Part shown: in pieces, positions 19,407 through 62,903 of the stretch
Layout of the letters: every line of letters starts with the position of its first letter
Position numbering within the stretch: position 1 is the first letter of the stretch
DNA from: Bacteroidales bacterium
GTDB lineage: Bacteria > Bacteroidota > Bacteroidia > Bacteroidales > WCHB1-69
Length of the DNA: 64,000 bases
NCBI GenBank assembly: GCA_024685175.1
Contig: JAIKWD010000004.1
Span: forward strand, 3,622 to 67,621
Direction of reading: 5' to 3'
Program-made: the position numbers and the translations under genes
Notes under the pieces: generated by a model
Database searches by the model: none
What the model was told of the DNA's origin: nothing
Seen by the model: the letters and a program-made list of their open reading frames with translations, nothing else

Positions 19407-19412
19407 AGGTTT

Positions 19413-20450: not shown

Positions 20451-20460
20451 AATTTACTAG

Positions 20461-20488
20461 TTTAATATTTAATGTTTAATTCTTAATT
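20461..20488 (-). repeat. heptamer array (TTTAATN)x4 between the two FKBP genes
   Basis: TTTAATA TTTAATG TTTAATT CTTAATT. Minus-strand TAA every 7 nt. Confidence 0.85.
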
Positions 20489-20494
20489 TTTTAC

Positions 20495-21040: not shown

Positions 21041-21049
21041 ACGGATGGA

Positions 21050-22075: not shown

Positions 22076-22098
22076 TTCATATTAAATTTTAGAGCCGA

Positions 22099-22106
22099 CA
22101 AAAATA
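22099..22106 (-). promoter_or_regulatory. Bacteroidota -7 box TAnnTTTG
   Basis: TATTTTTG, 24 nt before nrnA. Confidence 0.55.
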
Positions 22107-22212
22107 CAAAAAAAACACACCTAATAAGTAATAATTATTTTGATAAAGTATGCTATGCGGGGAGTGTTTGTAATGAATGGAGACTTGCTGCATGATGTGG
22201 CTCGCCCAAAAC

Positions 22213-22836: not shown

Positions 22837-22876
22837 GATGTTATGGCGTGAATGATTGACGGCTACATAAAAAAAA

Positions 22877-22974
22877 GGGTAAGCTACTTGCATCGCATCG
22901 CTACAACCGACGTACCCTTGCTGTATTCCTACCCTGGGGGAGTTAGAAGGGAGCAGATCGTACAAGACTTACCC
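22877..22974 (-). ncRNA. ffs: signal recognition particle RNA (small bacterial 4.5S type)
   Basis: Minus-strand 98-nt RNA GGGUAAG...CUUACCC with 7-bp terminal pairing. The central domain-IV signature AGG-GUA-GGAA-UAC-AGCA is present (GNRA tetraloop hairpin at plus 22923-22932, AGCA at 22919-22922). A U-run follows on the minus strand (plus A-run 22869-22876). Confidence 0.7.
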
Positions 22975-23007
22975 GCCGCAAAAATAGGAAAATTTTCGTT
23001 TTGCGGC
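22975..23007 (-). terminator. hairpin after the decarboxylase gene, just upstream of ffs
   Basis: GCCGCAAAA-N15-TTTTGCGGC, with no downstream U-run. Confidence 0.4.
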
Positions 23008-28432: not shown

Positions 28433-28460
28433 TTAGTGAGGAGTTAGGAGTGAAGGGTGA
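28433..28460 (+). repeat. purine-rich heptamer array x4
   Basis: TTAGTGA GGAGTTA GGAGTGA AGGGTGA. Confidence 0.75.
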
Positions 28461-28463
28461 CTT

Positions 28464-28524
28464 TATCTCTATCATCTCTCATCTCAAGTCTTAAATCTCT
28501 ATTCTCAAATCCCAAATCATTCCC
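28464..28524 (-). repeat. pyrimidine-rich heptamer array x8
   Basis: TCATCTC TCATCTC AAGTCTT AAATCTC TATTCTC AAATCCC AAATCAT (approximate phase). Confidence 0.7.
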
Positions 28525-28538
28525 GCCCCCAGACTATC

Positions 28539-28570
28539 GGTTCATTGAATTATTGGTTCATTGGATTATT
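28539..28570 (-). repeat. octamer array GGTTCATT GAATTATT GGTTCATT GGATTATT
   Basis: Same GGTTCATT unit and 16-nt spacing as at 323-346. Confidence 0.8.
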
Positions 28571-28703
28571 GTTTTTTTTCTTTTGCTCTGAAAAACAAAA
28601 CCGTATACTATTGTTAATCAATACGATATGTAAATTTTAAAGTGTTGTCACGCCAAAAGAAAAAAAACTTCAAGATATAAGTTGTTAATAATCAAAAAAA
28701 ATG

Positions 28704-41832: not shown

Positions 41833-41847
41833 ATTATCACTTTAAAT

Positions 41848-41882
41848 TTTGCATTTTGAACTTTGCATTTTGAACTTTGAAT
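41848..41882 (+). repeat. heptamer/14-mer array TTTGCAT TTTGAAC x2 + TTTGAAT
   Basis: A perfect 14-nt duplication that abuts the nuclease stop at 41882. Confidence 0.85.
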
Positions 41883-42760: not shown

Positions 42761-42820
42761 TCTATAATCTAAAAATCAAAATTCAAAATCCATTATCTAT
42801 TATCAATTCCTCATTCCTAA
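42761..42820 (-). repeat. degenerate ~7-nt array (TCWAWWW-like)x8
   Basis: Units start at 42761, 42768, 42776, 42783, 42789, 42796 and 42803. The array ends at the GH3 stop (42817-42819). Confidence 0.6.
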
Positions 42821-46345: not shown

Positions 46346-46384
46346 ATTGATAACCTGTTTAGTTGCTAAGTTGTGAATGAAAAT

Positions 46385-46419
46385 GCTATCCGCTACCCGC
46401 TATCTGCTGTCTGCTACCT
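46385..46419 (-). repeat. heptamer array (GCTRYCY)x5
   Basis: GCTATCC GCTACCC GCTATCT GCTGTCT GCTACCT. On the minus strand it reads RDTAGCR units directly after the pfkA stop. Confidence 0.9.
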
Positions 46420-47525
46420 TACTCATCTCCAAAGCAGATGCCGACGCTACGGGCGGTGTGTACAAGGAAGTCCTTGTCGGGTTGCACAAGGTGCGGTTCC
46501 TTGAGTGCTTCTTCCAGTGGGACGCTATGAATGTTAGGCTGTCTGTAGACGACAAGTTGTCCGTATTGGTGGTTTTTGACCAGTTCGAAAGCCTTGACGC
46601 CGAATTCGGTGGCGAGGATGCGGTCGTAGGCCACAGGGGTGCCGCCACGTTGGAGATGTCCGAGCACGGTGACGCGCACATCATGCTCGATGCCGAGGTC
46701 AATGAGTTCTCGGCGGAGTACGTCGCCAACGCCACCCAGCTTAAAGTGACGGTCGCCGACAGCCTCCGGAGCACTGCCTGTCACTAAGCCGTCGGCCTTC
46801 TTGGCGCCTTCGGCGATGACGATGTTGCAGAAACCCATGCCGTTCTTGTAGCGGGTCTCGATCTTTTTGACGATATTTCTAGGGTCGTAGGGGATTTCAG
46901 GGATGATACAGACTTCGGCTCCACCCGCCAATGCGGTATGCAGGGCAATCCAGCCAGCATCACGCCCCATCACCTCCATGATGAACACGCGGTTGTGACT
47001 CTCGGCAGTGGTCACTAGCTTGTCGAAGGCCTCCGTGGCGATCTGCACGGCCGTCTGGAACCCGAACGTGAAGTCGGTGCTTGACAAATCGTTGTCAATG
47101 GTCTTGGGCACGCCCACCACGTTGATGCCGATCTTTTGCAAAGCCAAAGAAATACCTTGGGAGCCGTCTCCTCCGATGTTGATGACGGCTTCGATGCCAA
47201 GCTCTTCCACACGCTTCTTCATTAGCTGGGAACGGTCTTCGATGATCCATGAGCCATCAGGTTGTTTGACGGGAAAATGGAATGGACCGCCACGGTTGGT
47301 GGTCTTGATGATGGTGCCGCCTTTCACGTGTAGGCCGGACACCATTTCTTCGGTGAGCTCCATGAGCTCTATGTTGTCTTTGAGGATGCCGTTGAAGGAT
47401 TCTATGCATCCATAAATCTTCCACTCCTCGGGTTCGAGGCTCGCGCGTTTGACGATGCCGCGGATGACCGCATTGAGGCCTGGGCAATCGCCGCCACCAG
47501 TGGCTACTAGTATCTTATGAGACAT
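46419..47525 (-). CDS. pfkA: 6-phosphofructokinase
   Basis: Start moved to ATG 47525 (MSHKILVATGGGDCPGLNAVIRG), 22 nt after a -7 box. Contains IGGDGS and PKTIDND. Confidence 0.9.
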   Translation of the reverse strand: MSHKILVATGGGDCPGLNAVIRGIVKRASLEPEEWKIYGCIESFNGILKDNIELMELTEEMVSGLHVKGGTIIKTTNRGGPFHFPVKQPDGSWIIEDRSQLMKKRVEELGIEAVINIGGDGSQGISLALQKIGINVVGVPKTIDNDLSSTDFTFGFQTAVQIATEAFDKLVTTAESHNRVFIMEVMGRDAGWIALHTALAGGAEVCIIPEIPYDPRNIVKKIETRYKNGMGFCNIVIAEGAKKADGLVTGSAPEAVGDRHFKLGGVGDVLRRELIDLGIEHDVRVTVLGHLQRGGTPVAYDRILATEFGVKAFELVKNHQYGQLVVYRQPNIHSVPLEEALKEPHLVQPDKDFLVHTARSVGICFGDE

Positions 47526-48395: not shown

Positions 48396-51300
48396 GTGAA
48401 AAGGATTTGGTGCATATTGTTCGTTCTGGCAACCCTCATAGGGTGGGGGAACGCGTATGCCCAAAACTCCTATAATGTCCCCTCTTCCAGTCACACAAAC
48501 GTTACCACTTGCGACGCCTGGATCTACGACAATGGTGGTGCAAATGGCAACTATTCAAACAATTGCAATGGCTATTTGGTCATCTATCCGAGCGGGAACA
48601 ATACATTGGTGTCCATAACATCCGGTACCTACAACACGATAGACGTAAGCTACGATTATATTGAGATCTATAATGGCGTCGGTACCAACGGTACGCCATT
48701 GGTCAGACTTGGCGGATCGGGGAGTATTACGAGTCCGATAACTTCTACCGCCGCCAACGGGGCCCTGACCATACGTTTCATTTCGGACTTCTGGTTTACC
48801 CGTCCCGGTTTTTCCTTGCATGTGCAGTGCACGCCTGTGGTTTCGATGTCTTCCACGATGCTGTCAACCTGCAATATGGCGTGGGCGGATCCAGGCGGTA
48901 CGGGCAACTACTCGAGCAACCAGAACATAACCCAAACCATCTGCTCCGACAACGGCGAACGGTTGATGGTCGACTTTTCTTCGTTTTCTTTGTATACTGG
49001 CGATACACTGTTCGTCTATGACGGAAACACCATAGCGGCCAACTTGTCGGGCTCTTTTTCCTGGAACTCGTCACCTGGAACCATAATCTCTTCGGGCACC
49101 TGTCTGACCTTCCGTTTCGTCAGCAACGGCTATGGCAACAACTCTGGTTGGCTTGCGCTAGTCTCTTGTTCCAATTGTTCTTCTGGCAACCACCCGCCCA
49201 GTACCGATTTGGGTTCGCCATGCGCCGCCGACAACATCCATCCGTTCTGTACGGACGAAGGCCAATATGTCTACGAGTCAGGTGTGACGGGCAGCGCTGA
49301 CGGTTTCTTTGATGATCCTTCTTCAGTGGGCTGCCTTGCAGTGACTCCTGCTCCGGCGTGGTATTATATGCGTATTGCCGATTCTGGCGACATCACTATC
49401 CACATCACACAACGTTTGCTCGCGCCTAATTTGTGGGGATCCTATATGGGTGACGTGGATTTCGCCTGTTGGGGCCCATTCACGGCGCAGAGCCCGAGCG
49501 ATTTCATAGAAAACCTCTGTTGTGGATTCTATTCGTTAAATATTGACGATCACCCCGATAATACGAGTCCCGATGCCCATTATCCATATCCCAACTTGGT
49601 GGACTGCAGTTACGATCCGGCCTCCACGGAAGATTGTCACATTACCAACGCCCAAGTCGGAGAGTATTATCTTTTGTTGATAACGAATTATGAGCGGGAA
49701 AGGGGAGTCATAACCTTCAACTCCACGCCAACCTCCACGGCCACCACGGACTGCAGCATTATGGTGGATGTGTCCAATGATGGTCCTTACTGTGAGGGCG
49801 ATACGATCCACTTGATATGTAATAATCCTTCGGTAGGAGCAAGCTATTCGTGGACAGGCCCTAACGGCTGGACGTCGAATGAGGTCAATCCAGTGATTTA
49901 TCCAGCTACGACTGCGATGAACGGCAATGCTTATTATTTGGTGAAAAGCATAGATGGCGTCGATTCGGATCCCGACACGACCATAATATCTGTTTCTCCG
50001 AAACCCATTGCTGAAATCATAGCTACTGATACTGTCATTTGCCTTGGCGAATCGGTGACCCTTTCTGCCCAGTGTAGGCCAGATACTTTCTTTACGGAAC
50101 TGTTTGATGGGATTTTGTCTGGGAACAATGCCTATTCTACGGGTTCGCTCAATCAGGTGGACGTCTCTGATATGGTGCAGTTCTCTGCCTATTCCAATAT
50201 TTATATGGCCGGCGGCGCTGTGAAGGTGGGCGACCAGAACATTCCCGGTAGCATGACGTCCGTGCCCTACGATCTGACAAATCCTTTCACGGTGCTCATT
50301 GGGGCAAAGAATTGGTTCGGTGCCAATGCGATGATGAGAGTGGAAGTGATTGACAATAACGGCGTCTCGCATCAAGCGCAGAATATCAATGTACATCAAG
50401 ACTGGTTTGAAGATTACCCAGTCACTTTTACGGGTGTTTCCAGTGGAGCTAAGATTAAGATATCCAAGGAATCGGGTAATCCTTATTTCATAGATAGGAT
50501 CTCCTTCTTGCGTGATGTACAATGTGTCAACCATTGGAGCCCTGGTGGGCAAACATCACAGTCTATAACAGTGTCACCCCAAAACACTACACAATACATA
50601 TTGCAGCAAAGTGTCGGTCCATGTGACGATTATGATACTATAACGATAGTCGTTAATCAACCGACAGTCAATCCAGATACGATTGTCCGAATGGTACGTT
50701 CCGATGCTTTCCCGTACTCGTTCAATAACACATTGTTCTATATTCCTGGTGAGTATGTGTTAACAACCCAGAATGCGGCTGGCTGCGACAGTACATACTT
50801 CTTATCACTGAGGTTGTTGCCCGCCGTGTATGTGAATCTGGATACTATTGTCTGTAAGCAATCGTTGCCTGTGCAATGGCATGATGTGATGTTTTATGGC
50901 GACAGTGTAGCCTCTCTCACATTTTTGAGCGCTTCTGGCGCCGATAGCATCGTGCAGCTGTCACTTTCAGTGAGTCTCAACCCTATCATCTCCGTTAACC
51001 TGGTGGATGAGACTTGCGCAGGAGATACACTGTTCGTGATGATCAGCAGCGACGAAAATGCTACTCTGCAAATAGATGACAATGCCGCCACGCGCGGCGA
51101 GACCCAGAAAGTGTTCCTGCCCGATTCCATCGATTGCCCACCATACGGTTCCAGTTACCGGTCGTTGGCCAACTTTTCACATTTCCAGTCAGGTGCTATG
51201 GTTACATCCGTCAATGACATCCTCTATCTGCGACTCAAGATCGAACACTCTGCCCTTGAAGACCTTCGTATGTCTGTGGTATGCCCAACCGGCCAAAGAA

Positions 51301-53399
51301 GCAAACTGGTGGCCGACTATAACCGCGAAACCGGACAGTGGGACAACATACCAAATACAGGATTTAGACTGAATCTGGGCCTCGCTAACCGCTTGACTGA
51401 CGAACTGGATTGTGACAGTACCCTTAGTCCGATTGGCATCCCGTGGGATTATGTCTGGTCCAATAACACGACGCTAAACTATCAGTACGCCAATAGCGCT
51501 CACAGCTATTGCTACGAGCAGGCAAATATCCAGTTGTACAACAATCCTTATTGGGACTCTAGCCCTTATCACTATTCTGTAAAACCGAGCAATCTTAACA
51601 ATCGTAGCCAGATCTATCATCCATACCAAAGCTTCTCTAATCTTGTTGGATGTCCTTTGAATGGAGAATGGTATATTGAAATCCAAGATATGATGCCGGA
51701 TGACAATGGATATTTGGTGGAATGGGAGTTGGCTATGGATCCTTCATTGCTGCGTGTAGAGAATCCGCCCGTGGTTAGTCGCTCCCTCACTGGCCCGTGG
51801 GTGACTCGCCTCACGGATTCGACTTTCATCGTCACGCCGCCATACAACTTGGCCCACGATACGACCGCCACTTATGTGTTCCATATTCAGGACTCTATTG
51901 GTTGCACCTTCGATACGTTGACCAAAGTCACCTTCTTTGCCCATGTCTCTTCCCAATATGATACGGCTGTTTGTTCCAACGACTTGCCGATCACTTGGCG
52001 TGATGAACTCTTTACGGCGGCTGGAAGTCGAGAATTGACGAGGACCTCCTATCATGGATGTGATAGCCTGGTGACACTTACCCTTACCACCAAACATGCT
52101 GTTACCCAGAATGTCGATACCTCTGTTTGCATCGGCGACTTGCCGATCACTTGGAATGGCATGAACATAAGTCAATCATTCTTGGCTACTCTTGTGCCAA
52201 CTAGTACTCAACCCCCAACGTATGCCATAGTTGATACGCTCTTCGGGGCCGCGGCCAATCAATGCGATAGTATTGTTACGTTGCATCTTACCCTTACCCA
52301 GTCTGTGGTTGCCAGACCGGTAGATACCATTATATGTGCCGCCGACTTGCCGTTTGTTTGGAATGAGACTGCCATAACCCAGCAAGATCTGGATTCCCAT
52401 GAGGCCGAGGGTATGCCACCTGTGTACACCTTTGTCGATACCCTATCAAGGGCTTCCCTCAATGGGTGCGATAGTATCATTACGTTGCACCTTACTGTAA
52501 ATCGGCCTGTTGAGGCAGCCAGGGTTGAGACCCTCGTTTGCGCTGACGATTTGCCCATCATTTGGCTTAACACAACTATTGATCAACATTACCTTGAACT
52601 ATTGGAAGAGACGGGCGCGCAGCCCCCGACCTATATTATCGTCGATACCATCGAAAGAGCTGCCGCCAATGGCTGTGATAGTATTGTGACCTTGCGTTTA
52701 ACGGTCAATCAACCTTCAGACCCTGAGGCTGTAGAGGTAACTGCATGCGGAGAATACACATGGATCGATGGCCGTACTTATACGTATAGCACCAATACTC
52801 CGACCCATATCTTGTCTAATATGGCAGGCTGTGATAGCGTATTAACCCTGCATCTGACTATTTTTCCCAAACCCCAAGCCTGTTTTGTGGTCTCTGCGCT
52901 TGATGACAACTATGAATTAGGCGCCACTCTGCATTTTGAGGAATGCTCACCAGGAATGGCTAATTATGAATGGTCTATGGGCAATATGGTGACTTTTGAT
53001 ATGCCCTCTTTTGATTATGTCTATCCGCATTCAGGATACTATCACGTTACGCTTAAGGTGACGGATGCAAATGGCTGCACCGATGAGCAGGGTAAAACAG
53101 TCTCTATCCATGAGCCGGAAACACAGGTTTTCTTCGCCAATACTTTCACCCCTAACGGAGATGGCTTGAATGACATTTTCAAGCCTGAAGGACAACATAT
53201 TATGCCTGAGGGCTACTCGTTGGTGATCTACGACCGATGGGGCGTGAAGGTCTTCAGTAGCACCGATCCCAACTATGGCTGGGATGGTACCTATATGGGT
53301 AGACTTGTGCCCAACAACTCCGTGATGTCCTATACGTTTAGATGTATTACAGAGTACGGTATGATCAGACAGAAAGGTGCTGTGACAGTCGTTTATTAA
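48396..53399 (+). CDS. giant secreted T9SS cargo protein: 2x CUB-like, P-domain-like, ~7 Cys-containing repeats, PKD, type-B (CHU_C/gliding) C-terminal sorting domain
   Basis: 1667 aa with a GTG start and signal peptide VKRIWCILFVLATLIGWGNAYAQ. CUB-like blocks at about 48471-48830 and 48856-49169. P-domain-like block at about 51175-51740 (LEDLRMSVVCPTG...GEWYIEIQDMMPDDNGYLVEWELAM). PKD at about 52921-53115. C-terminal domain FTPNGDGLNDIF...IYDRWG...WDG at about 53127-53396. Confidence 0.85.
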   Translation: MKRIWCILFVLATLIGWGNAYAQNSYNVPSSSHTNVTTCDAWIYDNGGANGNYSNNCNGYLVIYPSGNNTLVSITSGTYNTIDVSYDYIEIYNGVGTNGTPLVRLGGSGSITSPITSTAANGALTIRFISDFWFTRPGFSLHVQCTPVVSMSSTMLSTCNMAWADPGGTGNYSSNQNITQTICSDNGERLMVDFSSFSLYTGDTLFVYDGNTIAANLSGSFSWNSSPGTIISSGTCLTFRFVSNGYGNNSGWLALVSCSNCSSGNHPPSTDLGSPCAADNIHPFCTDEGQYVYESGVTGSADGFFDDPSSVGCLAVTPAPAWYYMRIADSGDITIHITQRLLAPNLWGSYMGDVDFACWGPFTAQSPSDFIENLCCGFYSLNIDDHPDNTSPDAHYPYPNLVDCSYDPASTEDCHITNAQVGEYYLLLITNYERERGVITFNSTPTSTATTDCSIMVDVSNDGPYCEGDTIHLICNNPSVGASYSWTGPNGWTSNEVNPVIYPATTAMNGNAYYLVKSIDGVDSDPDTTIISVSPKPIAEIIATDTVICLGESVTLSAQCRPDTFFTELFDGILSGNNAYSTGSLNQVDVSDMVQFSAYSNIYMAGGAVKVGDQNIPGSMTSVPYDLTNPFTVLIGAKNWFGANAMMRVEVIDNNGVSHQAQNINVHQDWFEDYPVTFTGVSSGAKIKISKESGNPYFIDRISFLRDVQCVNHWSPGGQTSQSITVSPQNTTQYILQQSVGPCDDYDTITIVVNQPTVNPDTIVRMVRSDAFPYSFNNTLFYIPGEYVLTTQNAAGCDSTYFLSLRLLPAVYVNLDTIVCKQSLPVQWHDVMFYGDSVASLTFLSASGADSIVQLSLSVSLNPIISVNLVDETCAGDTLFVMISSDENATLQIDDNAATRGETQKVFLPDSIDCPPYGSSYRSLANFSHFQSGAMVTSVNDILYLRLKIEHSALEDLRMSVVCPTGQRSKLVADYNRETGQWDNIPNTGFRLNLGLANRLTDELDCDSTLSPIGIPWDYVWSNNTTLNYQYANSAHSYCYEQANIQLYNNPYWDSSPYHYSVKPSNLNNRSQIYHPYQSFSNLVGCPLNGEWYIEIQDMMPDDNGYLVEWELAMDPSLLRVENPPVVSRSLTGPWVTRLTDSTFIVTPPYNLAHDTTATYVFHIQDSIGCTFDTLTKVTFFAHVSSQYDTAVCSNDLPITWRDELFTAAGSRELTRTSYHGCDSLVTLTLTTKHAVTQNVDTSVCIGDLPITWNGMNISQSFLATLVPTSTQPPTYAIVDTLFGAAANQCDSIVTLHLTLTQSVVARPVDTIICAADLPFVWNETAITQQDLDSHEAEGMPPVYTFVDTLSRASLNGCDSIITLHLTVNRPVEAARVETLVCADDLPIIWLNTTIDQHYLELLEETGAQPPTYIIVDTIERAAANGCDSIVTLRLTVNQPSDPEAVEVTACGEYTWIDGRTYTYSTNTPTHILSNMAGCDSVLTLHLTIFPKPQACFVVSALDDNYELGATLHFEECSPGMANYEWSMGNMVTFDMPSFDYVYPHSGYYHVTLKVTDANGCTDEQGKTVSIHEPETQVFFANTFTPNGDGLNDIFKPEGQHIMPEGYSLVIYDRWGVKVFSSTDPNYGWDGTYMGRLVPNNSVMSYTFRCITEYGMIRQKGAVTVVY
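51956..52880 (+). repeat. in-frame tandem repeats (~204-207 nt, ~69 aa) inside the T9SS cargo gene
   Basis: Units start at 52113, 52320 and 52524 (full copies), with shorter copies at 51956 and 52731. Each has VDTxVCxxDLPIxW ... GCDSIVTLxLTV. Confidence 0.85.
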
Positions 53400-53413
53400 A
53401 GCTTTTAAGAACT

Positions 53414-53833
53414 ATGGATATTTTCTCTCCTCACTCCAACAAATCGCAAACGCCTTTGGTAGAAGGAATCAGGGCAGGGTTTCCTTCCCCGGCGGAAGAC
53501 TTTACCGGTCCCGCGCTCGACCTGAACCAATATGTCATCAAGAACGCCGCCTCCACCTTCTACGCCCGCATCACGGGCTATAGTATGGTTGGCGCTGGCA
53601 TCCAGGACGGCGACATCGTCGTCATCGACAAGTCTTTGGAACCCACAGACGGCTGCATCGCCGTTTGCTTCCTCGACGGCGAGTTTACCCTTAAGAGCAT
53701 CAAGGTGGAGAAGGACCGTGTCTGGCTTATACCCGCCAATCCGGATTATAAGCCTATTGAGGTGACCGAAGACAATCACTTCGTGGTGTGGGGCATCGTC
53801 ACCTATGTGATCAAGAAAATGAATCGCCTGTAA
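53414..53833 (+). CDS. umuD: S24 peptidase, UmuD-like translesion polymerase accessory subunit
   Basis: Start moved to ATG 53414. GFPSPAEDF, GYSM (Ser nucleophile) and the DGEFTLK lysine region are present. Confidence 0.8.
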   Translation: MDIFSPHSNKSQTPLVEGIRAGFPSPAEDFTGPALDLNQYVIKNAASTFYARITGYSMVGAGIQDGDIVVIDKSLEPTDGCIAVCFLDGEFTLKSIKVEKDRVWLIPANPDYKPIEVTEDNHFVVWGIVTYVIKKMNRL

Positions 53834-53855
53834 AAGGGCTTTATATCAATATATT

Positions 53856-55115
53856 ATGTATGGCCTTGCCGACTGCAACAACTTTTTCGCCTCTTGCGAA
53901 CGAGTCTTCCGTCCTGACTTGAACGGGAAACCGGTCATCATTTTGTCCAACAACGACGGTTGTGTGATTTCGCGTTCCAACGAGGCCAAACGCATCGGCA
54001 TCAAGATGGGCCAACCGTACTATCAACTCAAGCAGGTGATAAAACAGTACGGGGTTGAGGTGTTCTCCTCGAACTTCGCCTTGTATGGGGATATGTCCCG
54101 CAGGGTACAGATTACGTTGCAGGAACTCGTGCCTGCCACCGAGGTCTACTCCATCGACGAGTCCTTCCTTGACCTTCGGGGCATTGAGGAGTCGGAGTTG
54201 GACGCCCTCGGCCATCATATCTCCTATGTTGTGCAACGCAATACGGGCGTGCCCATCAGCGTGGGCATTGCCCCGACGAAGACCCTGGCCAAGATTGCCT
54301 CCAAACTCTGCAAACAGTACCCCAAACTGCACGGCAGTTGCTTTATGTATCGCCCTGAGGATATAGAGAAGGTGTTGCGCAAGTTTCCCGTGGAAGACGT
54401 TTGGGGCATTGGCCGCCGCTTTTCCAAGATGCTGCAGAGTAGGGGAATACATACGGCCCAGGACTTCGCCAATATGCCGATGAGCCTCGTGCAGTCGCTG
54501 ATGCACGTGGGGGGCGTCAAGACGTGGCGCGAACTGCACGGCGAGCCCTGCGTCGAGTTTGAGGAACAGGCCAAGGACAAACAGCAGATTACCGTCTCAC
54601 GCAGTTTCGCCAAGGAGTTGACCGAAGTGGACGACTTGCAGCAGCAAGTGGCGCTTTTCACCTCGATGGCGGCCGAAAAACTGCGCAAGCAAGAGAGCGT
54701 CTGCAATGCCGTGATGGTCTTTATGCTCACCAACCGCCACCGCGAGGATAAACCACAACAGTTCGCCAACCGCTTGATTCCGTTGCCCGTGGGCACCGAC
54801 AGCACGCTGGAATTGGTCAACGTGGCCACCCGTGCCGTAGCGGAACTGGCCCGTTTCGGCTACGCATACAAGAAAGCGGGCGTGATCTTGTCCGACATTT
54901 TGCCGAAAAATGCATTCCAGACTGCCCTCTTTGACGATGTGGACCATCAAAAGCAATCGAAACTGATGTCCGCCTTGGATGCTATCAACAAGAAGCAAGG
55001 TCCACGCTCCGTGGTAGTTGCCAGTGCCGGTTTCGACGGTGTCAAGATGAACCGTAATCACCTCTCGCCTAACTATACCACGGAGTGGGAAGACATACTA
55101 GTAGTTAGTAGCTAG
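53856..55115 (+). CDS. umuC: Y-family DNA polymerase, UmuC-like
   Basis: 419 aa. MYGLADCNNFFASCERVFRPDL...SIDESFLDL. Lies directly after umuD. Confidence 0.85.
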   Translation: MYGLADCNNFFASCERVFRPDLNGKPVIILSNNDGCVISRSNEAKRIGIKMGQPYYQLKQVIKQYGVEVFSSNFALYGDMSRRVQITLQELVPATEVYSIDESFLDLRGIEESELDALGHHISYVVQRNTGVPISVGIAPTKTLAKIASKLCKQYPKLHGSCFMYRPEDIEKVLRKFPVEDVWGIGRRFSKMLQSRGIHTAQDFANMPMSLVQSLMHVGGVKTWRELHGEPCVEFEEQAKDKQQITVSRSFAKELTEVDDLQQQVALFTSMAAEKLRKQESVCNAVMVFMLTNRHREDKPQQFANRLIPLPVGTDSTLELVNVATRAVAELARFGYAYKKAGVILSDILPKNAFQTALFDDVDHQKQSKLMSALDAINKKQGPRSVVVASAGFDGVKMNRNHLSPNYTTEWEDILVVSS

Positions 55116-55140
55116 TAGTCAGTGGCCAGTTAGCAGAGAC
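55099..55140 (+). repeat. heptamer array TAGTAGT TAGTAGC TAGTAGT CAGTGGC CAGTTAG CAGAGAC
   Basis: Six in-phase heptamers. The first three give two TAG in each reading frame and include the umuC stop (55113-55115). Confidence 0.9.
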
Positions 55141-55160
55141 GATGCACGCATCGTCTCTGC
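55133..55160. terminator. perfect 12-bp-arm hairpin with CACG loop between convergent umuC and the DUF4139 gene
   Basis: GCAGAGACGATG-CACG-CATCGTCTCTGC, with no U-run. Confidence 0.55.
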
Positions 55161-55161
55161 G

Positions 55162-56790
55162 CTAGAATGCGTTCAACACCTTGTCCTTCGGGTATTTCAC
55201 GCTGTAGGTGATGATGAACGTCTTGGTCTCGCCTGCCTTGAGTTCGGTGTCCCAAGTGATGACGCCGATGTCGGTCTTGTCGTAGGTGGCGTTGGGGCTG
55301 ACAGAGACATCTTTAACCTCGATGTCCTTGTTGTTGGAGATGGGATACTGCTCCTTCAACGTCAGTTTTGCACTGCGGTTGAGGTTGTTCTTGACGGTGA
55401 TCTCGAACGACTGCGTGACGGTGGTGCTGTTGCCCACGTGCTTGGTTTCGCAGTAGTCGCGGCGCTTCTCGCGCTTTACGGTCATTCTCGGCTCGGTGGT
55501 GAGCGTCAGCGTGATGTGCTCTTCCGTGTTGTTGGGACGAATGAAACTCTTGCCCACAAAGGTGTTGTCAAAGGTGACGGTGGCCTCGCCTGGCAGCAAG
55601 TTGTATTGCTCATAGTCGGAGAGGGTGGCGACGAGATAGGTTTCGTCTGACAACTTCGGAATACTGTAATACTTGAAGTCGGCCTTGATGTCGTAGCTCT
55701 TCAGGTCGATGAGTTGGGGCTTGCCGTTGCCGGGGATGTCGTAGGGCACGGCGATGTTGTACGACACTTGAATGTCCTGTTCTTCAACCTCTACAAATTG
55801 ATCCATCAAAATCGGTGCGTTTTGAACTGAGACACCCTCTAGGCTTGAATGGACATTTTGGACAGATGCAGCATCGTATTCTATACTGTTTTTAGCGAGG
55901 GGAACGCCATTTGTATATTGTCTGTAATTTCTTTGGAAATTTAGGTGCCACGGTGTGAAGACGGGCGCTTGCGAATAGCGGTTGGGGGTGGCGTTGGAAA
56001 GGGTGAGTCGGACATTGTCCCAGTCAAGGCCGGTGAGTTGGTAGACGCGGGCTTTGGCCTTCAGCGCGATGGGCTTGTCCATAGAAGGAATGTTGAGGTC
56101 GTAGCAGGGCACCCACTGCGCTTTGTCGGTGAAGTAGGTGATGGTGAACTTCGTGGTGATGCTTTCCGGTACACTGATGGAGAGGCGCAGGATACCCGTG
56201 CGCGTCTGGCTGTTGGCATTGTCTTCGGCGATTTGCTGGGTTAACCGATTGACGGTCTCGCGTAACTTCTCCACCTTCTTTTTGTCCTTGTCGATGCTTT
56301 TTTGCAACTCTGCGGCCTTGGTTTGGTAGAGCTCCATATTGGCGTTGATGTCGGCGATGGAGACCTGGTGTTCCTTAAGTTGCATATTGCTTTGTGTGCC
56401 GTCGGTCAACAGCTTCAGCATCTGTTTGTGGCGGGACAGCTCGTTGTCGGCGTCGTTAAGCTTGTCCGTGTAATACTCGAGTGAGTCGGTGAGCTTTTTG
56501 ATGCGGGCGCTCTCCTCACGCGGGGTGATGAAGTCGTTGGAGAACTCGCTGGCGGAAACGAGCACGCCGTTTGCACTGACCTTGAGACTGTTGAGCTCGA
56601 TGTCGGGACTCAGGTTGTCGATGATGATCTCTTGGCTGCCGCTCTTGAGATTAGCGGTGGCCGTGTGGGTGAGCGCCGCGCCGCGGAGATAGACGGTGGC
56701 CTGCTCCAACTTGGCGGAAATCTGTTTTTGGGCAAACGATGGCATAGCGATTGCTATGCATAAAAGCATTAAAGCAAAAGACTTTTTCAT
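55162..56790 (-). CDS. secreted DUF4140/DUF4139 (MuiA-like) protein with central coiled coil
   Basis: Start moved to ATG 56790 (signal peptide MKKSFALMLLCIAIAMPSFAQ). The N-terminus ATVYLRGAALTHTA...LSPDIELNSLKV is typical of this family as recalled. Confidence 0.65.
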   Translation of the reverse strand: MKKSFALMLLCIAIAMPSFAQKQISAKLEQATVYLRGAALTHTATANLKSGSQEIIIDNLSPDIELNSLKVSANGVLVSASEFSNDFITPREESARIKKLTDSLEYYTDKLNDADNELSRHKQMLKLLTDGTQSNMQLKEHQVSIADINANMELYQTKAAELQKSIDKDKKKVEKLRETVNRLTQQIAEDNANSQTRTGILRLSISVPESITTKFTITYFTDKAQWVPCYDLNIPSMDKPIALKAKARVYQLTGLDWDNVRLTLSNATPNRYSQAPVFTPWHLNFQRNYRQYTNGVPLAKNSIEYDAASVQNVHSSLEGVSVQNAPILMDQFVEVEEQDIQVSYNIAVPYDIPGNGKPQLIDLKSYDIKADFKYYSIPKLSDETYLVATLSDYEQYNLLPGEATVTFDNTFVGKSFIRPNNTEEHITLTLTTEPRMTVKREKRRDYCETKHVGNSTTVTQSFEITVKNNLNRSAKLTLKEQYPISNNKDIEVKDVSVSPNATYDKTDIGVITWDTELKAGETKTFIITYSVKYPKDKVLNAF

Positions 56791-56899
56791 AATAATATTA
56801 TTATTGAATATTTTGATAGCAAAAAACAGATAATAGAATATGTTTTTGATGATTGGTTTAAATGTAATTGCACAATACATCAATCACCCTGATATGATA

Positions 56900-56927
56900 G
56901 TAGGGACGCAGCACGCTGCGTCCCTAC
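56900..56927 (-). terminator. perfect 12-bp-arm hairpin with CACG loop after the nfeD-like gene
   Basis: GTAGGGACGCAG-CACG-CTGCGTCCCTAC. Same architecture as 55133-55160. Confidence 0.55.
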
Positions 56928-56930
56928 AAA

Positions 56931-56958
56931 TGCTAACTGCTATCGGCTAACCGCTAAT
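56931..56958 (-). repeat. heptamer array (NGCTAWY)x4
   Basis: TGCTAAC TGCTATC GGCTAAC CGCTAAT. Minus-strand TAG at 56956, 56949, 56942 and 56935; the first is the nfeD-like stop codon. Confidence 0.9.
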
Positions 56959-58309
56959 TCGCTTTTTTTACCACCAATTGTGCGTTCTCGAATTTCGTCA
57001 CCACGATGGGGGTGCCTTTGTCGATGAGGCCATGCTCGGATTCGGCTTCTAGGATTTCGCCGTCAATGTCGATCTTGCCGGCGGGGCGCATAAAGGTGGC
57101 GGCGGTGCCGGTCTTGCCCACGTATGCCTGCATACGCTGGTCTTGGGCCGAATAGCCCTTGTCGGTGTCCAGTCGGGTCTTTAGTGCCAACGAGCCGAAA
57201 CGGGTGTCGGCCGTGATGAGCTTCTTGCCCAGCCATAAAGACAAGAAGAAACCCAATACGGTGCTGAGGAAGACGATGAGCGTACTCTTGCCCAGTTGGG
57301 CGGCGGAGTCAAGGTTGGGGTTGAAATTGAAATGGAAGCCCACGTTGAAGACCATCGTCAGAATGAGGGAAGCCAAAATGAGGATGATGCCGGAGATGCC
57401 GGCAATGCCGAAGCCTGGGATGACGAAGATCTCCAACATCAATAAGACTACGCCGCAAATGAAGACCAGAATTTCCCAATGTTGGGCCAGCCCTTCCAAG
57501 TAATGGGGGGCAAAGAAGAGAAGTGCGCCGATGATGGCGATAATGATGGGAAGCCCAAGACCGGGCGACTGCAACTCGAAATAGAGCCCACCCACGATAC
57601 ACATGATGAGCAGACCGCTCACGACTGGGTTGACCAAGAAGTTGATGAACTTGTCGATCCAGGAGAGATGTTGTTCGTTCACGGTGCTGCCGTCGAGCCC
57701 GGCGGCTTTCAGCACCTCCTCGCGTGTGTTGGCCATTCCTTGGCAATAGCCGTGCTTCACCGCCTCTTCCGAGGTGAAGGTGAGCACCTTACCCTTTTCG
57801 CTGATTCCCTTGACTATCACGTCGGGGTCGACCATCGCCTGCGCGATGTCGGGGTTGCGATGGTTCTTTTCTGCAGTAGCGCGCATAAGGGAGCGCATAT
57901 ACGACTGGTATTTGTCCGGCATTATCTCGCCTTTCTCGTTGACAACGGAGGCAGCACCGAACGAAGAACCAGGCGCCATATAGATGCTGTCGCAGGCGAT
58001 GGCGATGAGTGCACCCGCGGATGCCGCATTGTTGTTGATGAAGACCATCGTGGGCATCGGTGCATTGAGCAACAAGGTCCGTATCTCGTCAGCGGCCTGG
58101 AGCTCGCCTCCAAAGGTGTTCAATTCCAGTAAGATATAGTCGGCTTTCTGCTCGGTGGCATCTTTCACCGCCCGCTCCGTCAACCGTTGTGCCGGCTTCG
58201 AGATGTTGTCGTTAATGGTGTAGTAGTAGACTTTCTTTTGAGCTAATACGTTAGATAAAGCAAGACAAATTATTAATATTGAGAATAATACCTTGTATTT
58301 CATATTCAA
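56954..58309 (-). CDS. NfeD-family membrane-bound ClpP-class serine protease (long form)
   Basis: 451 aa. Signal peptide, ClpP-like N-terminal domain (INNNAASAGALIA), 4-5 transmembrane segments, and a C-terminal OB-like NfeD domain. Confidence 0.75.
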   Translation of the reverse strand: MNMKYKVLFSILIICLALSNVLAQKKVYYYTINDNISKPAQRLTERAVKDATEQKADYILLELNTFGGELQAADEIRTLLLNAPMPTMVFINNNAASAGALIAIACDSIYMAPGSSFGAASVVNEKGEIMPDKYQSYMRSLMRATAEKNHRNPDIAQAMVDPDVIVKGISEKGKVLTFTSEEAVKHGYCQGMANTREEVLKAAGLDGSTVNEQHLSWIDKFINFLVNPVVSGLLIMCIVGGLYFELQSPGLGLPIIIAIIGALLFFAPHYLEGLAQHWEILVFICGVVLLMLEIFVIPGFGIAGISGIILILASLILTMVFNVGFHFNFNPNLDSAAQLGKSTLIVFLSTVLGFFLSLWLGKKLITADTRFGSLALKTRLDTDKGYSAQDQRMQAYVGKTGTAATFMRPAGKIDIDGEILEAESEHGLIDKGTPIVVTKFENAQLVVKKAN

Positions 58310-58330
58310 TGAATTTTACAATGATTAAGA

Positions 58331-61300
58331 TTAATCCAACTCTATTTTATAGGGAACGGGTAAGCGCAAGTTCTTAATGAAAGACTCAGGCTCCACCTTA
58401 GTGCTGAAGTTGAAGAAATCGGCGTAGTAGACATTGTTGTCTTCCACGATGCGGACGGCAAAAGGAATCTTGCCTTTGTGCTTCTCCAATGAAGCCTTGA
58501 GGGCATGGGCTAGCTCCGCACTCACATCGTTGATGCTGAATGCTAGCCGAATCTCTTGACAGAGCTTTTCATAGGAGTCTTCCAGATAGAGGATTTGAAT
58601 GGGCACTACGTCTGCACGTATTGACTCCGAGCCGTCTTTGTTGCGCCAGCTCTTTACCACTAGTCGAGCTCGAACGAACAGACGTTTTCCCGGTTCCAAA
58701 AGATGCCGATACTTGGTGTAGTCTTCGCCAACGAGGAACCAGTTCCAGGAGCCGTCGTAGTCTTCCAGCGTAACACTTCCGTAATCTTTGTTGGAACGTG
58801 TGACCCCAGTGCGGATGTCAGTGACAATGCCGGCAAAAGCGAACGGCTTTCCACTGGAGTAGGCCTTCTTCATGAATTCTTCGTCGTTGAGCTTGGCCAG
58901 ACTGAGATTGCAGTAGTTCTGAATGATAGGTTTGAACTCATCCAGTGGATGTGCGGTGATGTAGAATCCCGCCACCTCCTTCTCGTGTTTTACCTGCTCG
59001 TAGGCACTCCAGGGCTCGCATTGAGGTATCTCAAGCTTACTCTCTTCTTGCAGACTCTCGTCTATATCGAAAATGGAGATCTGGTTTTGAGCTCCTTTCT
59101 GGCTGTTCCCGGAATAGGCGATGAGCTTGTCTATAAAAGTCTGGTTGTTGCCGTAATCGATGAAGAACTGGGCGCGATGGATCTCTTTGAATCCATCGAA
59201 CGCCCCACCCATGGCCAAAGTCTCGATGCAACGTTTGTTGCAGTTGCGCAAGTTGATACGTGACATGAAGTCGAAGATGTCCTTGTATGGGCCATGTGCA
59301 TTGCGCTCTTCCAAGATGCTGTCTACTGCGCTTGCCCCAACGCCTTTCAAGGCGGCGAGACCGAAGCGGATGTCACCATGGGAATTTACGGTAAAGTTAA
59401 ACTCCGACTCGTTGATGTCAGGGCCCAACAACCGGATGTCCTTCTTCTGTGCATCTTCGATGAGAACGCTGATGGATTCTATATCACTGATACTGTTGGT
59501 CATGTTGGCAGCCATGAACTCTGCCCGATAGTGGGCCTTCAAGTATGCGGTCTGGTATGCCACCCATGAATAACAGGTGGCGTGAGACTTGTTGAATGCG
59601 TATGAGGCGAACTTCTCCCAGTCACTCCATATTTTCTCCAATACTTTGGGATCGTGACCATTTTCAGTGCCCTGTTTGATGAATTTGGGCTTGAGATGGT
59701 CCAACTTGTCCCGTTGTTTCTTGCCCATTGCTTTTCGCAAAGTGTCGGATTCGCCGCGGGTGAAGTTGGCCAGCAGACGTGACAAAAGCATAACCTGCTC
59801 TTGATATACTGTGATGCCGTACGTGTCTTTCAAGTAACGCTCCATGATGGGAATGTCGTACTTGATCTCTTCATCGCCGTGCTTGCGGCGGATGAACTGC
59901 GGTATGTAGTCCATAGGGCCGGGACGATAGAGGGCATTCATGGCTATGAGGTCTTCAAACTTGCTGGGCTTCAGCTCTTTGAGGTATTTCTGCATACCTG
60001 CGGATTCAAACTGGAACGTGGCCACCGTATCACCTTCGCAGAACAATTGATAAGTCTCGGGGTCGTCAATGGGGATGGCGTCAATGTCAATGTCTATGCC
60101 CTTGGATTTCTTGATGTTGGCAAGGGTGTTCTTGATGATAGTTAAAGTCTTTAGGCCGAGGAAGTCCATCTTGATGAGGCCCACGTCCTCGATGACGGAT
60201 CCTTCGTATTCTGTGACGAGCACGTCTTCTTTGGAGTTTTTGTCTTCTACGGTGGACAAAGGAGCGAAGTTGGTGAGGTCGTCGGCACCGATGATGACTC
60301 CGCACGCGTGGATGCCGGTCTGTCTAACTGTTCCTTCCAACTGGGAGGCGTAATAGAGCACATCGTGAACCTTTTGACCACCATTTTCAAAGGCATCCTT
60401 CATTTCAGGGACCATTGAGAGGCAATTCTTGATGTTGACCTTCGGCGCTTTGCCCGTCTTGGCGTCTTCGTGAAACCGGTCGGGCACGAGCTTGGCCAAC
60501 CGGTTCGACTCGTTAAGGTCCAAGTCTTGCACCCTTGCCACGTCCTTGATGCTGGACTTGGTGGCCATGGTGCCGTAGGTGATGATGTGGGCCACGCGTT
60601 CCTGGCCATATTTGTTGGTGATCCAGTCGAGTACCTTGTACCGCCCGTCGTCGTCAAAGTCCACGTCGATATCGGGTAAGGAGATTCGGTCTGGATTTAG
60701 AAAACGTTCGAACAGCAAGTCGTATTTGAGCGGGTCTATGTCGGTGATCTTGAGGCAGTAGGCTACCACTGATCCAGCTGCGGAGCCACGTCCAGGGCCC
60801 ACGGATACGCCCATGTTGCGGGCGGCTGCAATGAAGTCCTGCACGATGAGGAAGTAGCCGGGAAAGCCCATGTTGCGCATGACGCCCAGCTCGAAGTCGA
60901 TGCGTTCCCGAATATCGTCAGGTACTGGATCCCCGTAGCGTTTGACGGCTCCGTCGTAGGTGAGTTTGCGCAGGTAGTCGGACTCCAGCTTGATACGGTA
61001 GGCGCGCTCCATGCCGCCCAACTTCTCGATTCGGCCTTTGCTCTCCTCGTCGGCTTCAAATTCGGCCTTGAGGTCCTCTTCCGTGAATTTTTGCTTGTAG
61101 CTTTCCACGGTGCCAAAAGATTCAGGGATGTCGAACACCGGCATGATGGGATCGTGCTTGAGTTTGTAGCATTCCACCTTGTCCACGATCTCTTGGGTGT
61201 TGGCCAAGGCCTCAGGCACGTCGGCGAAGATGGCGGCCATTTCGTCGGGTGTTTTGAGCCATTCTTGCTTGGTGTAATGCATGCGGTCTGTGTCGCTAAG

Positions 61301-62861: not shown

Positions 62862-62868
62862 GTATTTT

Positions 62869-62903
62869 TAGGATATAGGGGATAGGAGATAGGAATTAGG
62901 GAA
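62869..62903 (+). repeat. heptamer array (TAGGNNN)x5
   Basis: TAGGATA TAGGGGA TAGGAGA TAGGAAT TAGGGAA, with TAG at an exact 7-nt spacing. Confidence 0.9.

Follow-up and report, generated by a model that had tools for sequence, protein, structure and literature searches.

The locus examined here lies in an uncultured ruminant-gut Bacteroidales and falls within a window of 64,000 nucleotides, which is the whole stretch of DNA that was analysed. At its centre is a umuDC pair, in which a gene for an S24-type UmuD-like protein precedes umuC. The UmuC product has the architecture of a Y-family polymerase, with an IMS core, an IMS_C little finger and a DUF4113 tail (Pfam E-values from 4.5e-37 for IMS to 1.2e-05 for IMS_HHH), and the S24 neighbour is in keeping with this assignment. 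The umuD-like gene call was taken from the identical contig L081, positions 2059-2478, and mapped to the window with an offset of 51355. Downstream of umuC the window holds a convergent MuiA-family gene and then the gene for NfeD, and the spacers on both sides of the MuiA-family gene carry short tandem arrays and hairpins (Table 1).

Table 1. Genes, heptamer arrays and hairpins at the umuC locus and elsewhere in the window
Feature	Position	Strand	Details
Third TAG-bearing heptamer array	46384..46418	-	GTAGCAG ACAGCAG ATAGCGG GTAGCGG ATAGCAT; starts 1 nt past the TAA stop of gene 46419-47525
umuD-like gene, S24 peptidase, 139 aa	53414..53833	+	Pfam Peptidase_S24, E = 1e-26; first of the umuDC pair
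umuC, Y-family DNA polymerase V subunit, 419 aa	53856..55115	+	Pfam IMS, IMS_HHH, IMS_C, DUF4113; stop TAG 55113-55115
Three clean heptamers	55099..55119	+	TAGTAGT TAGTAGC TAGTAGT; code for (L)VVSS and include the umuC stop and, in frame, another TAG
Three degenerate in-phase heptamers	55120..55140	+	CAGTGGC CAGTTAG CAGAGAC; the last one overlaps a hairpin arm
Perfect palindromic hairpin	55133..55160		13-nt arms 55133-55145 and 55148-55160, 2-nt centre AC; between convergent umuC and MuiA/DUF4139 gene
DUF4140/DUF4139 gene, MuiA-family, TIGR02231	55162..56790	-	Pfam and gene call; convergent with umuC
Second hairpin	56900..56927		13-nt arms, centre AC, geometry as in the 55133 hairpin; downstream of NfeD
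Sister array	56929..56956	-	TAGCGGT TAGCCGA TAGCAGT TAGCATT; TRF period 7, 3.7 copies; hairpin next to it
Fourth TAG-bearing heptamer array	62866..62900	+	(TAGGRRA)x5; divergent spacer, away from gene ends

The 3′-end of umuC is itself part of a tandem repeat. Its tail reads cTAGTAGtTAGTAGcTAGTAGt, with TAG trinucleotides starting at 55099, 55102, 55106, 55109, 55113 and 55116, and a direct reading of the letters confirmed all six positions given in the original prediction, together with its statement that every reading frame receives two of them: 55099 and 55102 in frame +1, 55106 and 55109 in frame +2, and 55113 and 55116 in frame 0, where an additional TAG follows at 55131. The TAG at 55113 had been named as the genuine umuC terminator, and the ORF does end there (53856-55115), with the second in-frame TAG at 55116. 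The residues LVVSS are likewise encoded by the array, as had been stated, the C-terminal ILVVSS being spelled ATA CTA GTA GTT AGT AGC. Three further in-phase heptamers described downstream are real but are a degenerate continuation, with a lag-7 identity of 12/21 over 55113-55140, a value reached in 0.03% of shuffles (p about 3e-4). Over the full 55099-55140 the lag-7 identity is 24/35, all other lags from 3 to 11 giving 3-14 matches, and Tandem Repeats Finder (TRF) reports a period of 7 with 3.6 copies at 55099-55123. The motif TAGTAGNTAGTAG, allowing at most one mismatch, has 2 matches against 0.07 expected, and the unit CAGTTAG is found again in the array at the 3′-end of the NfeD gene and in an array of the relative L154. 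A longer string, CAGTTAGCA, has exact copies only at 55127 on the plus strand and 56931 on the minus strand; it was rejected as a general motif, there being just these two exact copies and one-mismatch matches below chance expectation. The cassette is a period-7 tandem repeat of three clean and three decayed TAGTAGN copies. With 7 mod 3 equal to 1, three copies of any 7-nt unit that includes a TAG suffice to bring TAG into every frame; this unit holds two TAGs and its length is not divisible by 3, which gives two per frame.

The three-frame layout has a real consequence for translation, in that all frames are closed twice and a natural frameshift is terminated inside the array. The umuC allele of the strain assembly L091 has lost 2 nt some 30 nt upstream; read out of frame, it stops at the TAG at 55106 and gives a product of 416 aa ending in ...NYTGVGRHTSS. 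Such observations could be read as evidence of a selected fail-safe terminator, in which a double TAG per frame is kept to stop read-through and frameshifting and to limit extended Pol V subunits; each of the three frames is closed twice in 21 nt, a stop at codon +1 is found in 5 of the 46 genes of the window, and at least ten assemblies have the array unchanged while the centre of the adjacent hairpin varies, although this invariance carries little weight among strains with more than 99% identity. We regard this reading as most improbable. There are 26 out-of-frame stops along umuC (15 and 11 in the two frames, the last at 55048 and 55070), and because these earlier stops already lie 15-20 codons upstream, the array can catch no shifts other than those in the final 14-17 codons. 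A shifted ribosome that met no out-of-frame TAGs in the array would gain a few residues only, and other UmuC lineages lack the cassette and manage with one stop. Across the window, closure of all frames within 21, 30 and 45 nt past the stop is found for 1, 3 and 5 genes, against 1.0, 3.5 and 8.4 in shuffles, and a general three-frame insulation after genes was therefore rejected. In related genomes, moreover, the unit has its TAG on the strand opposite to that of the flanking genes, and the strand of those genes shows a TAA in each unit there. Additional stops show no enrichment over shuffles and the cassette is not conserved beyond the species, and there is no sign of selection for it as a stop cassette. 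The meaning implied by the original prediction, a universal stop cassette made or selected for the purpose and with some link to an error-prone polymerase, is unsupported by these observations: the frame coverage is automatic, the array is species-specific and one of many, and three-frame closure is not in excess. Nothing in these observations ties the array to UmuC function or SOS mutagenesis, and similar arrays follow NfeD and an unrelated gene.

Engineered three-frame stop cassettes are designed sequences found in cloning vectors, and they share with the umuC array the placement of all-frame stops in about 20 nt; the umuC version is a by-product of period and unit content. The ambush hypothesis, reportedly put forward by Seligmann and Pollock in 2004, is said to concern out-of-frame hidden stops spread along whole genes, and has been put to the test (PMC5909447 and PMC3700767). 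The out-of-frame TAGs in the last umuC codons do stop shifted ribosomes in this manner, as the L091 allele demonstrates, but of the 26 hidden stops along the gene the array adds just the last four. With regard to tandem in-frame stops, umuC has one at codon +1 (TAG TAG) and another at +6, but the second TAG is a part of the repeat unit and not an independent feature. Eubacteria show a paucity of additional stops, with no link to expression or to leaky stops (Ho & Hurst 2019, PMC6764699), and the lack of selection for additional stop codons in bacteria generally also speaks against a fail-safe role.

The distribution of the array among strains and relatives defines it as a feature of one species. 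It is identical in at least ten assemblies (L081-L084, L091, X1, X5, X6, X11 and X25), and it occurs in none of the other relatives examined, which comprise 121 further UmuC clusters (82-83% identity for the nearest) and 80 genomes at the species level. Strain-specificity and absence from close relatives had been put forward as marks of chance slippage; the former does not hold, the same array being shared by these assemblies, and the latter does. UmuC of relatives is mostly 419 aa long, and the gene ends ...ata ctg gtg gtg aag agt TGA in L085 and ...gag gtt aaa ggg TGA in L086-L090. Among the ten or more assemblies there is no indel or copy-number variation in the array, as judged from assembled contigs, which hide minority variants, and the array is not visibly slipping now. 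Like a phase-variable contingency locus it combines a tandem unit not divisible by 3 with an overlap of coding sequence, but no array indel was found in these contigs, and no on/off switch is possible because gain or loss of a unit alters at most the last two UmuC residues.

The cassette is a species-specific heptamer array that we infer to have most likely arisen through slipped-strand duplication where umuC ends, in the lineage of this one species. The ancestral tail would have been of the ILVVKS-stop type that is still present in the closest relative (P0011/L085). If the residues LVV were spelled CTA GTA GTT, they would supply the proto-unit TAGTAGT, and a first 7-nt duplication would shift the frame to give ILVVSS with a stop directly after it; a second 7-nt duplication would then give ILVVSS-TAG-TAG-T, which is the sequence of today. 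In a reconstruction from an L085-like end, three synonymous changes and two 7-nt duplications lead to ILVVSS followed by two stops and match the window at 24 of 25 nt. The length of 419 aa and the conserved I-L-V-V strand are kept, and the event would thus have been tolerated. The codons of the umuC tail are rare ones (CTA is 5.4% of Leu codons, GTA and GTT are each 15% of Val, and AGT is 13% of Ser), which is consistent with a sequence imposed at the level of DNA. Several observations run counter to slippage. The ancestral spelling CTA GTA GTT is assumed, L085 having CTG GTG GTG, and its codon-usage prior is about 1e-3. We also know of no mutational cause for a preference for period 7.

The neighbouring hairpin and the MuiA-family gene bring in a different possible origin. 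The original prediction had described a perfect 12-bp hairpin at 55133-55160; a perfect hairpin is present, but its arms measure 13 nt. It folds as 12 bp with a 4-nt loop, and the minimum free energy of an 86-nt stretch containing it is -34.1 kcal/mol (z = -4.3). The centre is GT and not AC in L091, X1, X5 and X6, with the same stem. When the arms of the 56900 hairpin are compared with those of the 55133 hairpin, 9 of 13 positions match and all 4 differences are compensated. The hairpin is separate from the array, and is one of two homologous palindromes around the MuiA-family gene. No T-run lies next to the 55133 hairpin on either strand, and for this reason it is not a canonical intrinsic terminator; tested as a Rho-independent terminator, 55133-55160 provides the stem and lacks the U-tract. 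A scan with consensus terminator and promoter patterns left the hairpin unflagged, with match counts equal to shuffle expectation, and a scan of 52000-59000 against Rfam at E-values up to 1 returned no matches. A relationship to REP or MITE elements was considered and rejected, the arm GCAGAGACGATGC with at most 3 mismatches having no copies in the window above chance and only the 56900 hairpin being geometrically similar. Its probable role is to mark or stabilise the convergent transcripts at their 3′-ends; breaks of assembled contigs at the palindrome were not read as RNA ends.

In this species only, the MuiA-family gene sits between umuC and the NfeD gene, whereas in L086-L090, L298 and L299 umuC faces NfeD directly. 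This raises the possibility that the array came with a 1.8-kb MuiA/DUF4139 segment inserted in the umuC-NfeD gap and did not grow from umuC, with a (TAACTAC)n-type minus-strand array, downstream of the hairpin of the MuiA gene, having been fused to the umuC tail by recombination at microhomology with an ancestral CTAGTAGT. The edges of the segment are the two homologous hairpins, each adjoining CAGTTAGCA, and the minus-strand array TAACTGG CCACTGA CTACTAG CTACTAA CTACTAG resembles arrays in the leaders of L100 and L154. Orthologues of MuiA with identities of 82% and 70% nonetheless lie in other contexts, their 3′ flanks lack the hairpin and array of the window, and no donor configuration was found among them. 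Import would also depend on the LVV codon coincidence that the slippage model requires, with a recombination event on top of it, and we consider it very unlikely.

Slipped-strand duplication at umuC has to be seen against the abundance of tandem arrays in this genome. TRF reports 46 arrays in the window where shuffles give 8.7; for periods of 7, 14 or 21, there are 20 where shuffles give 1.5. Spacers make up 5% of the window and hold 26 of the 46 TRF arrays; a period-7 array is found in 9 of the 28 spacers of at least 25 nt, and the autocorrelation of intergenic sequence peaks at lag 7. A search for TAGTAGN arrays found no second copy within the window, in which other TAG-bearing heptamer arrays are present. 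The NfeD gene ends on the first TAG (56954-56956) of the sister array, in which TAG occurs in all three frames. The array at umuC is one case of a genome-wide habit, spacers being packed with tandem arrays whose 7-9-nt units are of many kinds. Arrays are also found in L154, L298 and L299, with different units, periods and positions, and the density of arrays in 80 more distant genomes is about one sixth; the spacer arrays of this clade turn over quickly between species.

A point that tells against local slippage is that three of the four TAG-heptamer arrays of the window lie at or after a stop codon in the sense orientation, and two of these then have homologous hairpins. The stop-codon placement and the hairpins hint at a recurring module rather than at independent accidents. 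Local slippage alone also does not predict that TAACTAC, the reverse-complement unit, recurs just upstream of start codons in related genomes. The array, with or without the hairpin, might accordingly be a functional cis-element that binds a protein with affinity for single-stranded nucleic acid, of the S1, Csp or OB-fold type and with one domain per heptamer, or that sets mRNA stability or termination, as a part of a clade-wide system related to TAACTGA. The pattern TAG-N4-TAG-N4-TAG occurs at 4 loci of the window against 0.09 expected, and at both umuC and NfeD the same order is found, with the stop codon in a TAG-heptamer array followed by CAGTTAGCA and a hairpin of 13+2+13 nt whose arms have the compensated differences noted above. 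Furthermore, (TAGTAGT)n is the reverse complement of (TAACTAC)n, and TAACTAC/TAACTGC arrays lie upstream of start codons in related Bacteroidales contigs, at a distance of 20 nt in L154 and 5 nt in L100, which is the arrangement described by MacGregor for TAACTGA repeats (PMC4679880); in relatives, G-poor nonamer arrays reach the umuC ATG. Units vary from array to array and, at orthologous spacers, from species to species, leaving no conserved sequence for a specific binder. The umuC array is reversed, with no start codon downstream, and neither the lack of an Rfam family nor a hairpin without a U-tract favours a functional element. We view a cis-element as possible but unlikely.

Translation in Bacteroidetes starts without Shine-Dalgarno pairing. 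A more elaborate proposal would have this clade use 7-9-nt arrays as intergenic punctuation, with G-poor (UAACUAC)n and (CCCAUUUAC)n arrays serving as unstructured leaders before starts, with (UAGUAGN)n and (UAGCNNN)n arrays in the opposite orientation, together with a hairpin of conserved geometry, placed at stops, and with both kinds read by an RNA-binding OB-fold protein, each repeat by one domain, to set termination, re-initiation or 3′-end stability. This proposal is decidedly doubtful; if it were true, the umuC cassette would be a working 3′ module and not debris.

Tandem heptamers of this kind have precedents. The STRR heptanucleotides of cyanobacteria, reportedly described by Mazel and colleagues in 1990, are said to comprise several tandem-heptamer families in the non-coding DNA of one lineage. 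The arrays of the window are similar in being period-7 arrays at gene edges and in non-coding DNA, at many loci and above chance, with multiple families and an unexplained 7-nt period; they differ in belonging to another phylum, in their units, and in that STRR copy number per genome is far higher. We know of no STRR array that carries the stop codon of a gene. The closest precedent is the TAACTGA repeats, which occur in Beggiatoaceae, cyanobacteria and some Bacteroidetes, with Paludibacter, a member of the Bacteroidales, among the carriers (MacGregor 2015, PMC4679880). These repeats consist of 2 to tens of tandem 7-nt copies that are nearly all intergenic and abut gene ends, in thirteen sets the repeats extend over the stop codon of the gene before them, and binding by S1, Csp or CsrA has been proposed (PMC4679880). 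Like the umuC array, they have stops in each of the three frames, and in both cases the repeat can include the terminator of the gene that lies upstream. TAACTAC, which is TAGTAGT on the other strand and rotated, matches TAACTGA at 5 of 7 positions, and the neighbouring units TAACTGC, TAACTGG and TAACTGT match at 6 of 7. The umuC units are nonetheless TAGTAGT/C, with CTACTAA/CTACTAG as reverse complement in register. The orientation is also reversed: the umuC array comes after a stop and before a hairpin in a convergent spacer with no subsequent start on either strand. TAACTGA repeats lie in the forward orientation with a start only a few nt downstream, as do the arrays of L154 and L100. The repeats of the Maribeggiatoa genome are essentially only TAACTGA (PMC4679880), whereas this genome has many unrelated units.

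The cassette alone matters little. It shows that a repeat with a stop in its unit can replace the final codons of a gene without harm, since a terminator comes along in each frame, and it warns against seeing design in the arithmetic of a 7-nt period. Of wider interest is a Bacteroidales lineage that packs its short spacers with fast-changing 7-9-nt arrays, some of them similar to TAACTGA, a family reported earlier in a handful of genomes. An array-rich lineage with many public metagenomes would be a good testing ground for neutral slippage versus post-transcriptional signals. A worldwide orientation bias of (TAGTAGN)n was considered and set aside: 57 of 214 arrays abut the stop of a sense ORF, 22 the end of an antisense ORF, and 15 are read through by an antisense ORF, counts that were not taken as evidence because an array on the sense strand necessarily truncates any ORF that enters it. 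Arrays of (TAGTAGN)3 or longer, with 3-19 copies, are found on more than 120 JGI metagenome contigs and on 86 viral contigs, and TAGTAGN is a generic motif.

The umuC gene, which follows an S24 UmuD-like gene, ends within a heptanucleotide tandem array (cTAGTAGtTAGTAGcTAGTAGt, 55098-55119) that Tandem Repeats Finder reports as 3.6 copies of period 7 at 55099-55123; the two-unit array pattern has 2 matches in the window against 0.07 expected. The six TAG triplets of the original prediction, two per frame, were confirmed in the sequence, with start positions at 55099 and 55102 (frame +1), 55106 and 55109 (frame +2), and 55113 and 55116 (ORF frame). The ORF stops at the TAG at 55113, as had been claimed, with the TAG at 55116 in frame behind it, and the last UmuC residues are indeed encoded by the array, ILVVSS being spelled ATA CTA GTA GTT AGT AGC. 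These codons are rare (CTA, 5.4% of Leu; GTA and GTT, 15% each of Val; AGT, 13% of Ser), as is expected if the DNA repeat rather than translation dictates the sequence. The three further in-phase heptamers reported downstream are a true degenerate continuation, with a lag-7 identity over 55113-55140 (12/21) that is reached by 0.03% of shuffles.

The source organism is an uncultured Bacteroidales from the guts of cattle and sheep. The exact UmuC protein is present on six contigs, and all four that were fetched are identical over the array and the following hairpin; the array is also unchanged, with no indels, in five contigs of the species from further runs (X1, X5, X6, X11, X25) and in L091, a more distant strain. 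Comparison of umuC 3′ ends in relatives, proposed at the outset as a check, found the array within the species only and not beyond it: none of 80 species-level relatives (best 78% identity) carries it, and none of 121 other UmuC clusters has a VVSS C-terminal end. Among the nearest relatives (82-83% UmuC identity), umuC ends in ...ata ctg gtg gtg aag agt TGA (ILVVKS and stop) in L085 and in ...gag gtt aaa ggg TGA in L086-L090. The UmuC proteins of relatives are almost all 419 aa, indicating that the array has not lengthened the protein.

The pathway that we infer begins with an ancestral L085-type ILVVKS tail, the assumed spelling of which, CTA GTA GTT, would contain TAGTAGT. One duplication of this heptamer would give ...GTT AGT AGT TAA (ILVVSS and stop), and two would give ...AGT AGT TAG TAG T, translating as ILVVSS followed by two stops; the modelled two-duplication product agrees with the window sequence at 24 of 25 positions. 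One duplication mechanism would thus explain why K became S, why the length did not change and why TAG stands twice in frame. The umuC heptamer array, which is species-specific, was probably born by slippage from LVV codons and tolerated as self-terminating, in a lineage whose spacers are filled with such arrays.

The likeness to a designed universal stop cassette does not call for selection, because 7 is not a multiple of 3: three heptamer copies show each triplet in every frame, and a unit with two TAGs places two in each. That the array was selected as a fail-safe stop is very improbable, although it does intercept a frameshift in L091, where a 2-nt deletion ~30 nt upstream puts umuC out of frame and translation would end at the TAG at 55106, within the array, after 416 aa (ending NYTGVGRHTSS). 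The deletion, in ACCACGG (L091:2088-2092; window ~55079-55081), abolishes YTTxW, a conserved motif in the tail formed by DUF4113, and may be an assembly error, with coverage of only ~5x. Against selection, umuC already holds 26 out-of-frame stops, 15 in frame +1 (last at 55048) and 11 in frame +2 (last at 55070), so that the array can intercept only shifts in the final 14-17 codons and selection would gain little. Nor are all-frame stops downstream of the 46 window genes above chance: 1, 3 and 5 genes are closed in all frames within 21, 30 and 45 nt past the stop, versus 1.0, 3.5 and 8.4 in shuffles matched for composition. Fifteen of the 46 genes end in TAG, a common stop codon in the window. 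Ho and Hurst likewise found no evidence for bacterial selection of additional stop codons (PMC6764699).

The hairpin predicted at 55133-55160 is perfect and correctly placed, with arms of 13 nt rather than the 12 bp described. Neither of its sides carries a T-run, a terminator scan gives no flag, and an Rfam scan of 52000-59000 returned zero matches. The hairpin centre (55146-55147) reads AC in the window, L081-L084 and X11, and GT in L091, X1, X5 and X6, all contigs of the same species; these are reverse complements, and the difference looks more like a flip of the centre, through template switching or an inversion, than like two separate substitutions. An array and a hairpin also follow NfeD (Table). 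The arms of the two hairpins are identical at 9 of 13 positions with all four differences compensated and, judged by their arms, the hairpins are homologous. The 9-mer CAGTTAGCA precedes both, oriented as the gene that each hairpin follows. The MuiA-family gene between umuC and NfeD is peculiar to the window's species, and in relatives at 83% UmuC identity (L086-L090, L298, L299) umuC is directly convergent with NfeD. Arrival of the array together with this MuiA segment is possible but unsupported, and we regard it as quite unlikely; MuiA orthologues (82% and 70% identity) lie in unrelated neighbourhoods with unrelated flanks, one adjoining a CARF/Card1 nuclease gene.

Table. Genes, hairpins and tandem arrays in the window and in two relatives (L298, L299)
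Feature	Coordinates	Strand	Description
umuC	53856-55115	+	419-aa Y-family polymerase; IMS, IMS_HHH, IMS_C, DUF4113 domains
umuC hairpin	55133-55145 + 55148-55160		Perfect 13-nt arms, 2-nt centre; between convergent umuC and MuiA-family gene
DUF4140/DUF4139 gene	55162-56790	minus	MuiA-family (TIGR02231); convergent with umuC
NfeD hairpin	56900-56927		After NfeD array; 13+2+13 geometry and AC centre, as in umuC hairpin
NfeD array	56929-56956 (as a tandem-array row, 56932-56957)	minus	TAGCGGT TAGCCGA TAGCAGT TAGCATT; first TAG (56954-56956) is NfeD stop codon
Spacer arrays	273-300, 14154-14242, 20452-20491, 28435-28571, 41839-41881, 42766-42789		Mostly period 7
Spacer array	13691-13727		Period 8
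TAG-bearing array	46384-46416		Begins 1 nt past TAA stop of gene 46419-47525
TAG-bearing array	62869-62900		(TAGGRRA)x5; divergent spacer
Nonamer arrays	L299:9915-10000, L298:9958-10001, L299:20434-20491, L298:19666-19719		In relatives

Short tandem arrays are abundant throughout the window, with 46 Tandem Repeats Finder rows versus 8.7 in dinucleotide shuffles, and 20 rows of period 7, 14 or 21 versus 1.5. Spacer makes up 5% of the window and holds 26 of the 46 rows; a period-7 array occupies 9 of the 28 spacers of at least 25 nt, and the autocorrelation of intergenic sequence shows peaks at lags 7 and 14. The units vary by locus (AAATCTC x7, ACTTTGA x6, GAGAGAT x4, TAGGRRA x5, ATTTAAT x5.6). 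Four loci (the umuC, NfeD, gene 46419-47525 and TAGGRRA arrays) carry the pattern TAG-N4-TAG-N4-TAG, against 0.09 expected. Several of the tandem arrays sit either immediately 5′ of TAnnTTTG promoters of the Bacteroidetes type or in the gap that separates a stop codon from the start codon after it.

The umuC-NfeD spacer of the 83% relatives is also a tandem array, of other units (AGAGAGG AAAGAGG AATGAGA in L086; a G-rich 8-9-mer array in L089), and more distant Bacteroidales have ~1/6 of the window's heptamer-array density, pointing to a clade-level habit in which individual arrays are short-lived. This clade-wide abundance is the part worth pursuing, the umuC array itself being of low to moderate interest. 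G-poor nonamer arrays in relatives reach start codons (CCCATTTAC x9 up to the umuC ATG; AACCTTACG x6); the window counterpart of the spacer before umuC is 22 nt only. Exact (TAGTAGN)3 is found in >120 JGI metagenome contigs and 86 viral contigs, in 3-19 copies. About one quarter of the (TAGTAGN)n matches listed abut a sense-strand ORF end, a share that is inflated because the array truncates any ORF reaching it. These metagenome matches include a relative of the window's organism (L154, 84% nucleotide identity over one gene) with TAACTAC x3, TAACTGC and TAACTGT on the gene strand, 20 nt before a start codon (L154:3254-3291). Another relative among these matches has a TAACTAC array with 5 nt between it and the downstream ATG that opens a 107-codon ORF (L100:1922-1953). 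(TAACTAC)n is the reverse complement of (TAGTAGT)n, the umuC unit.

TAACTGA heptamer direct repeats are known from Beggiatoaceae, cyanobacteria and five Bacteroidetes including Paludibacter (MacGregor 2015, PMC4679880), mostly just upstream of start codons, with 13 sets overlapping the upstream gene's stop codon; binding by S1, Csp or CsrA-type proteins is a proposal only (PMC4679880). The umuC array shares with them its period of 7, gene-edge position and three-frame stops, but differs in unit sequence and is not forward-oriented before a start codon; the L154 and L100 arrays resemble them in being placed shortly before start codons. The STRR heptamers of cyanobacteria offer a second precedent for such arrays. 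We place the umuC array in the general kind of intergenic heptanucleotide tandem arrays and not in the TAACTGA family. The main rival to an origin by slippage is a functional reading, in which arrays and hairpins would act as cis-elements in a system like that of TAACTGA; it draws on the leader arrays in relatives and on the way stop, array, CAGTTAGCA and hairpin recur in this order, and we hold it to be unlikely.

The hexamer TAGTAG is itself in excess over the whole window (28 versus 10.7 expected), mostly on the + strand within minus-strand genes (for example 16775-23284), where it reads CTACTA in sense; codon or dipeptide usage is one possible cause. Directly upstream of umuDC, 48396-53399 encodes a 1667-aa secreted protein (677-1667 aa in relatives) whose C-terminal domain is clearly CHU_C (type IX secretion) and whose matches to CUB, P_proprotein and PKD are faint or weak.
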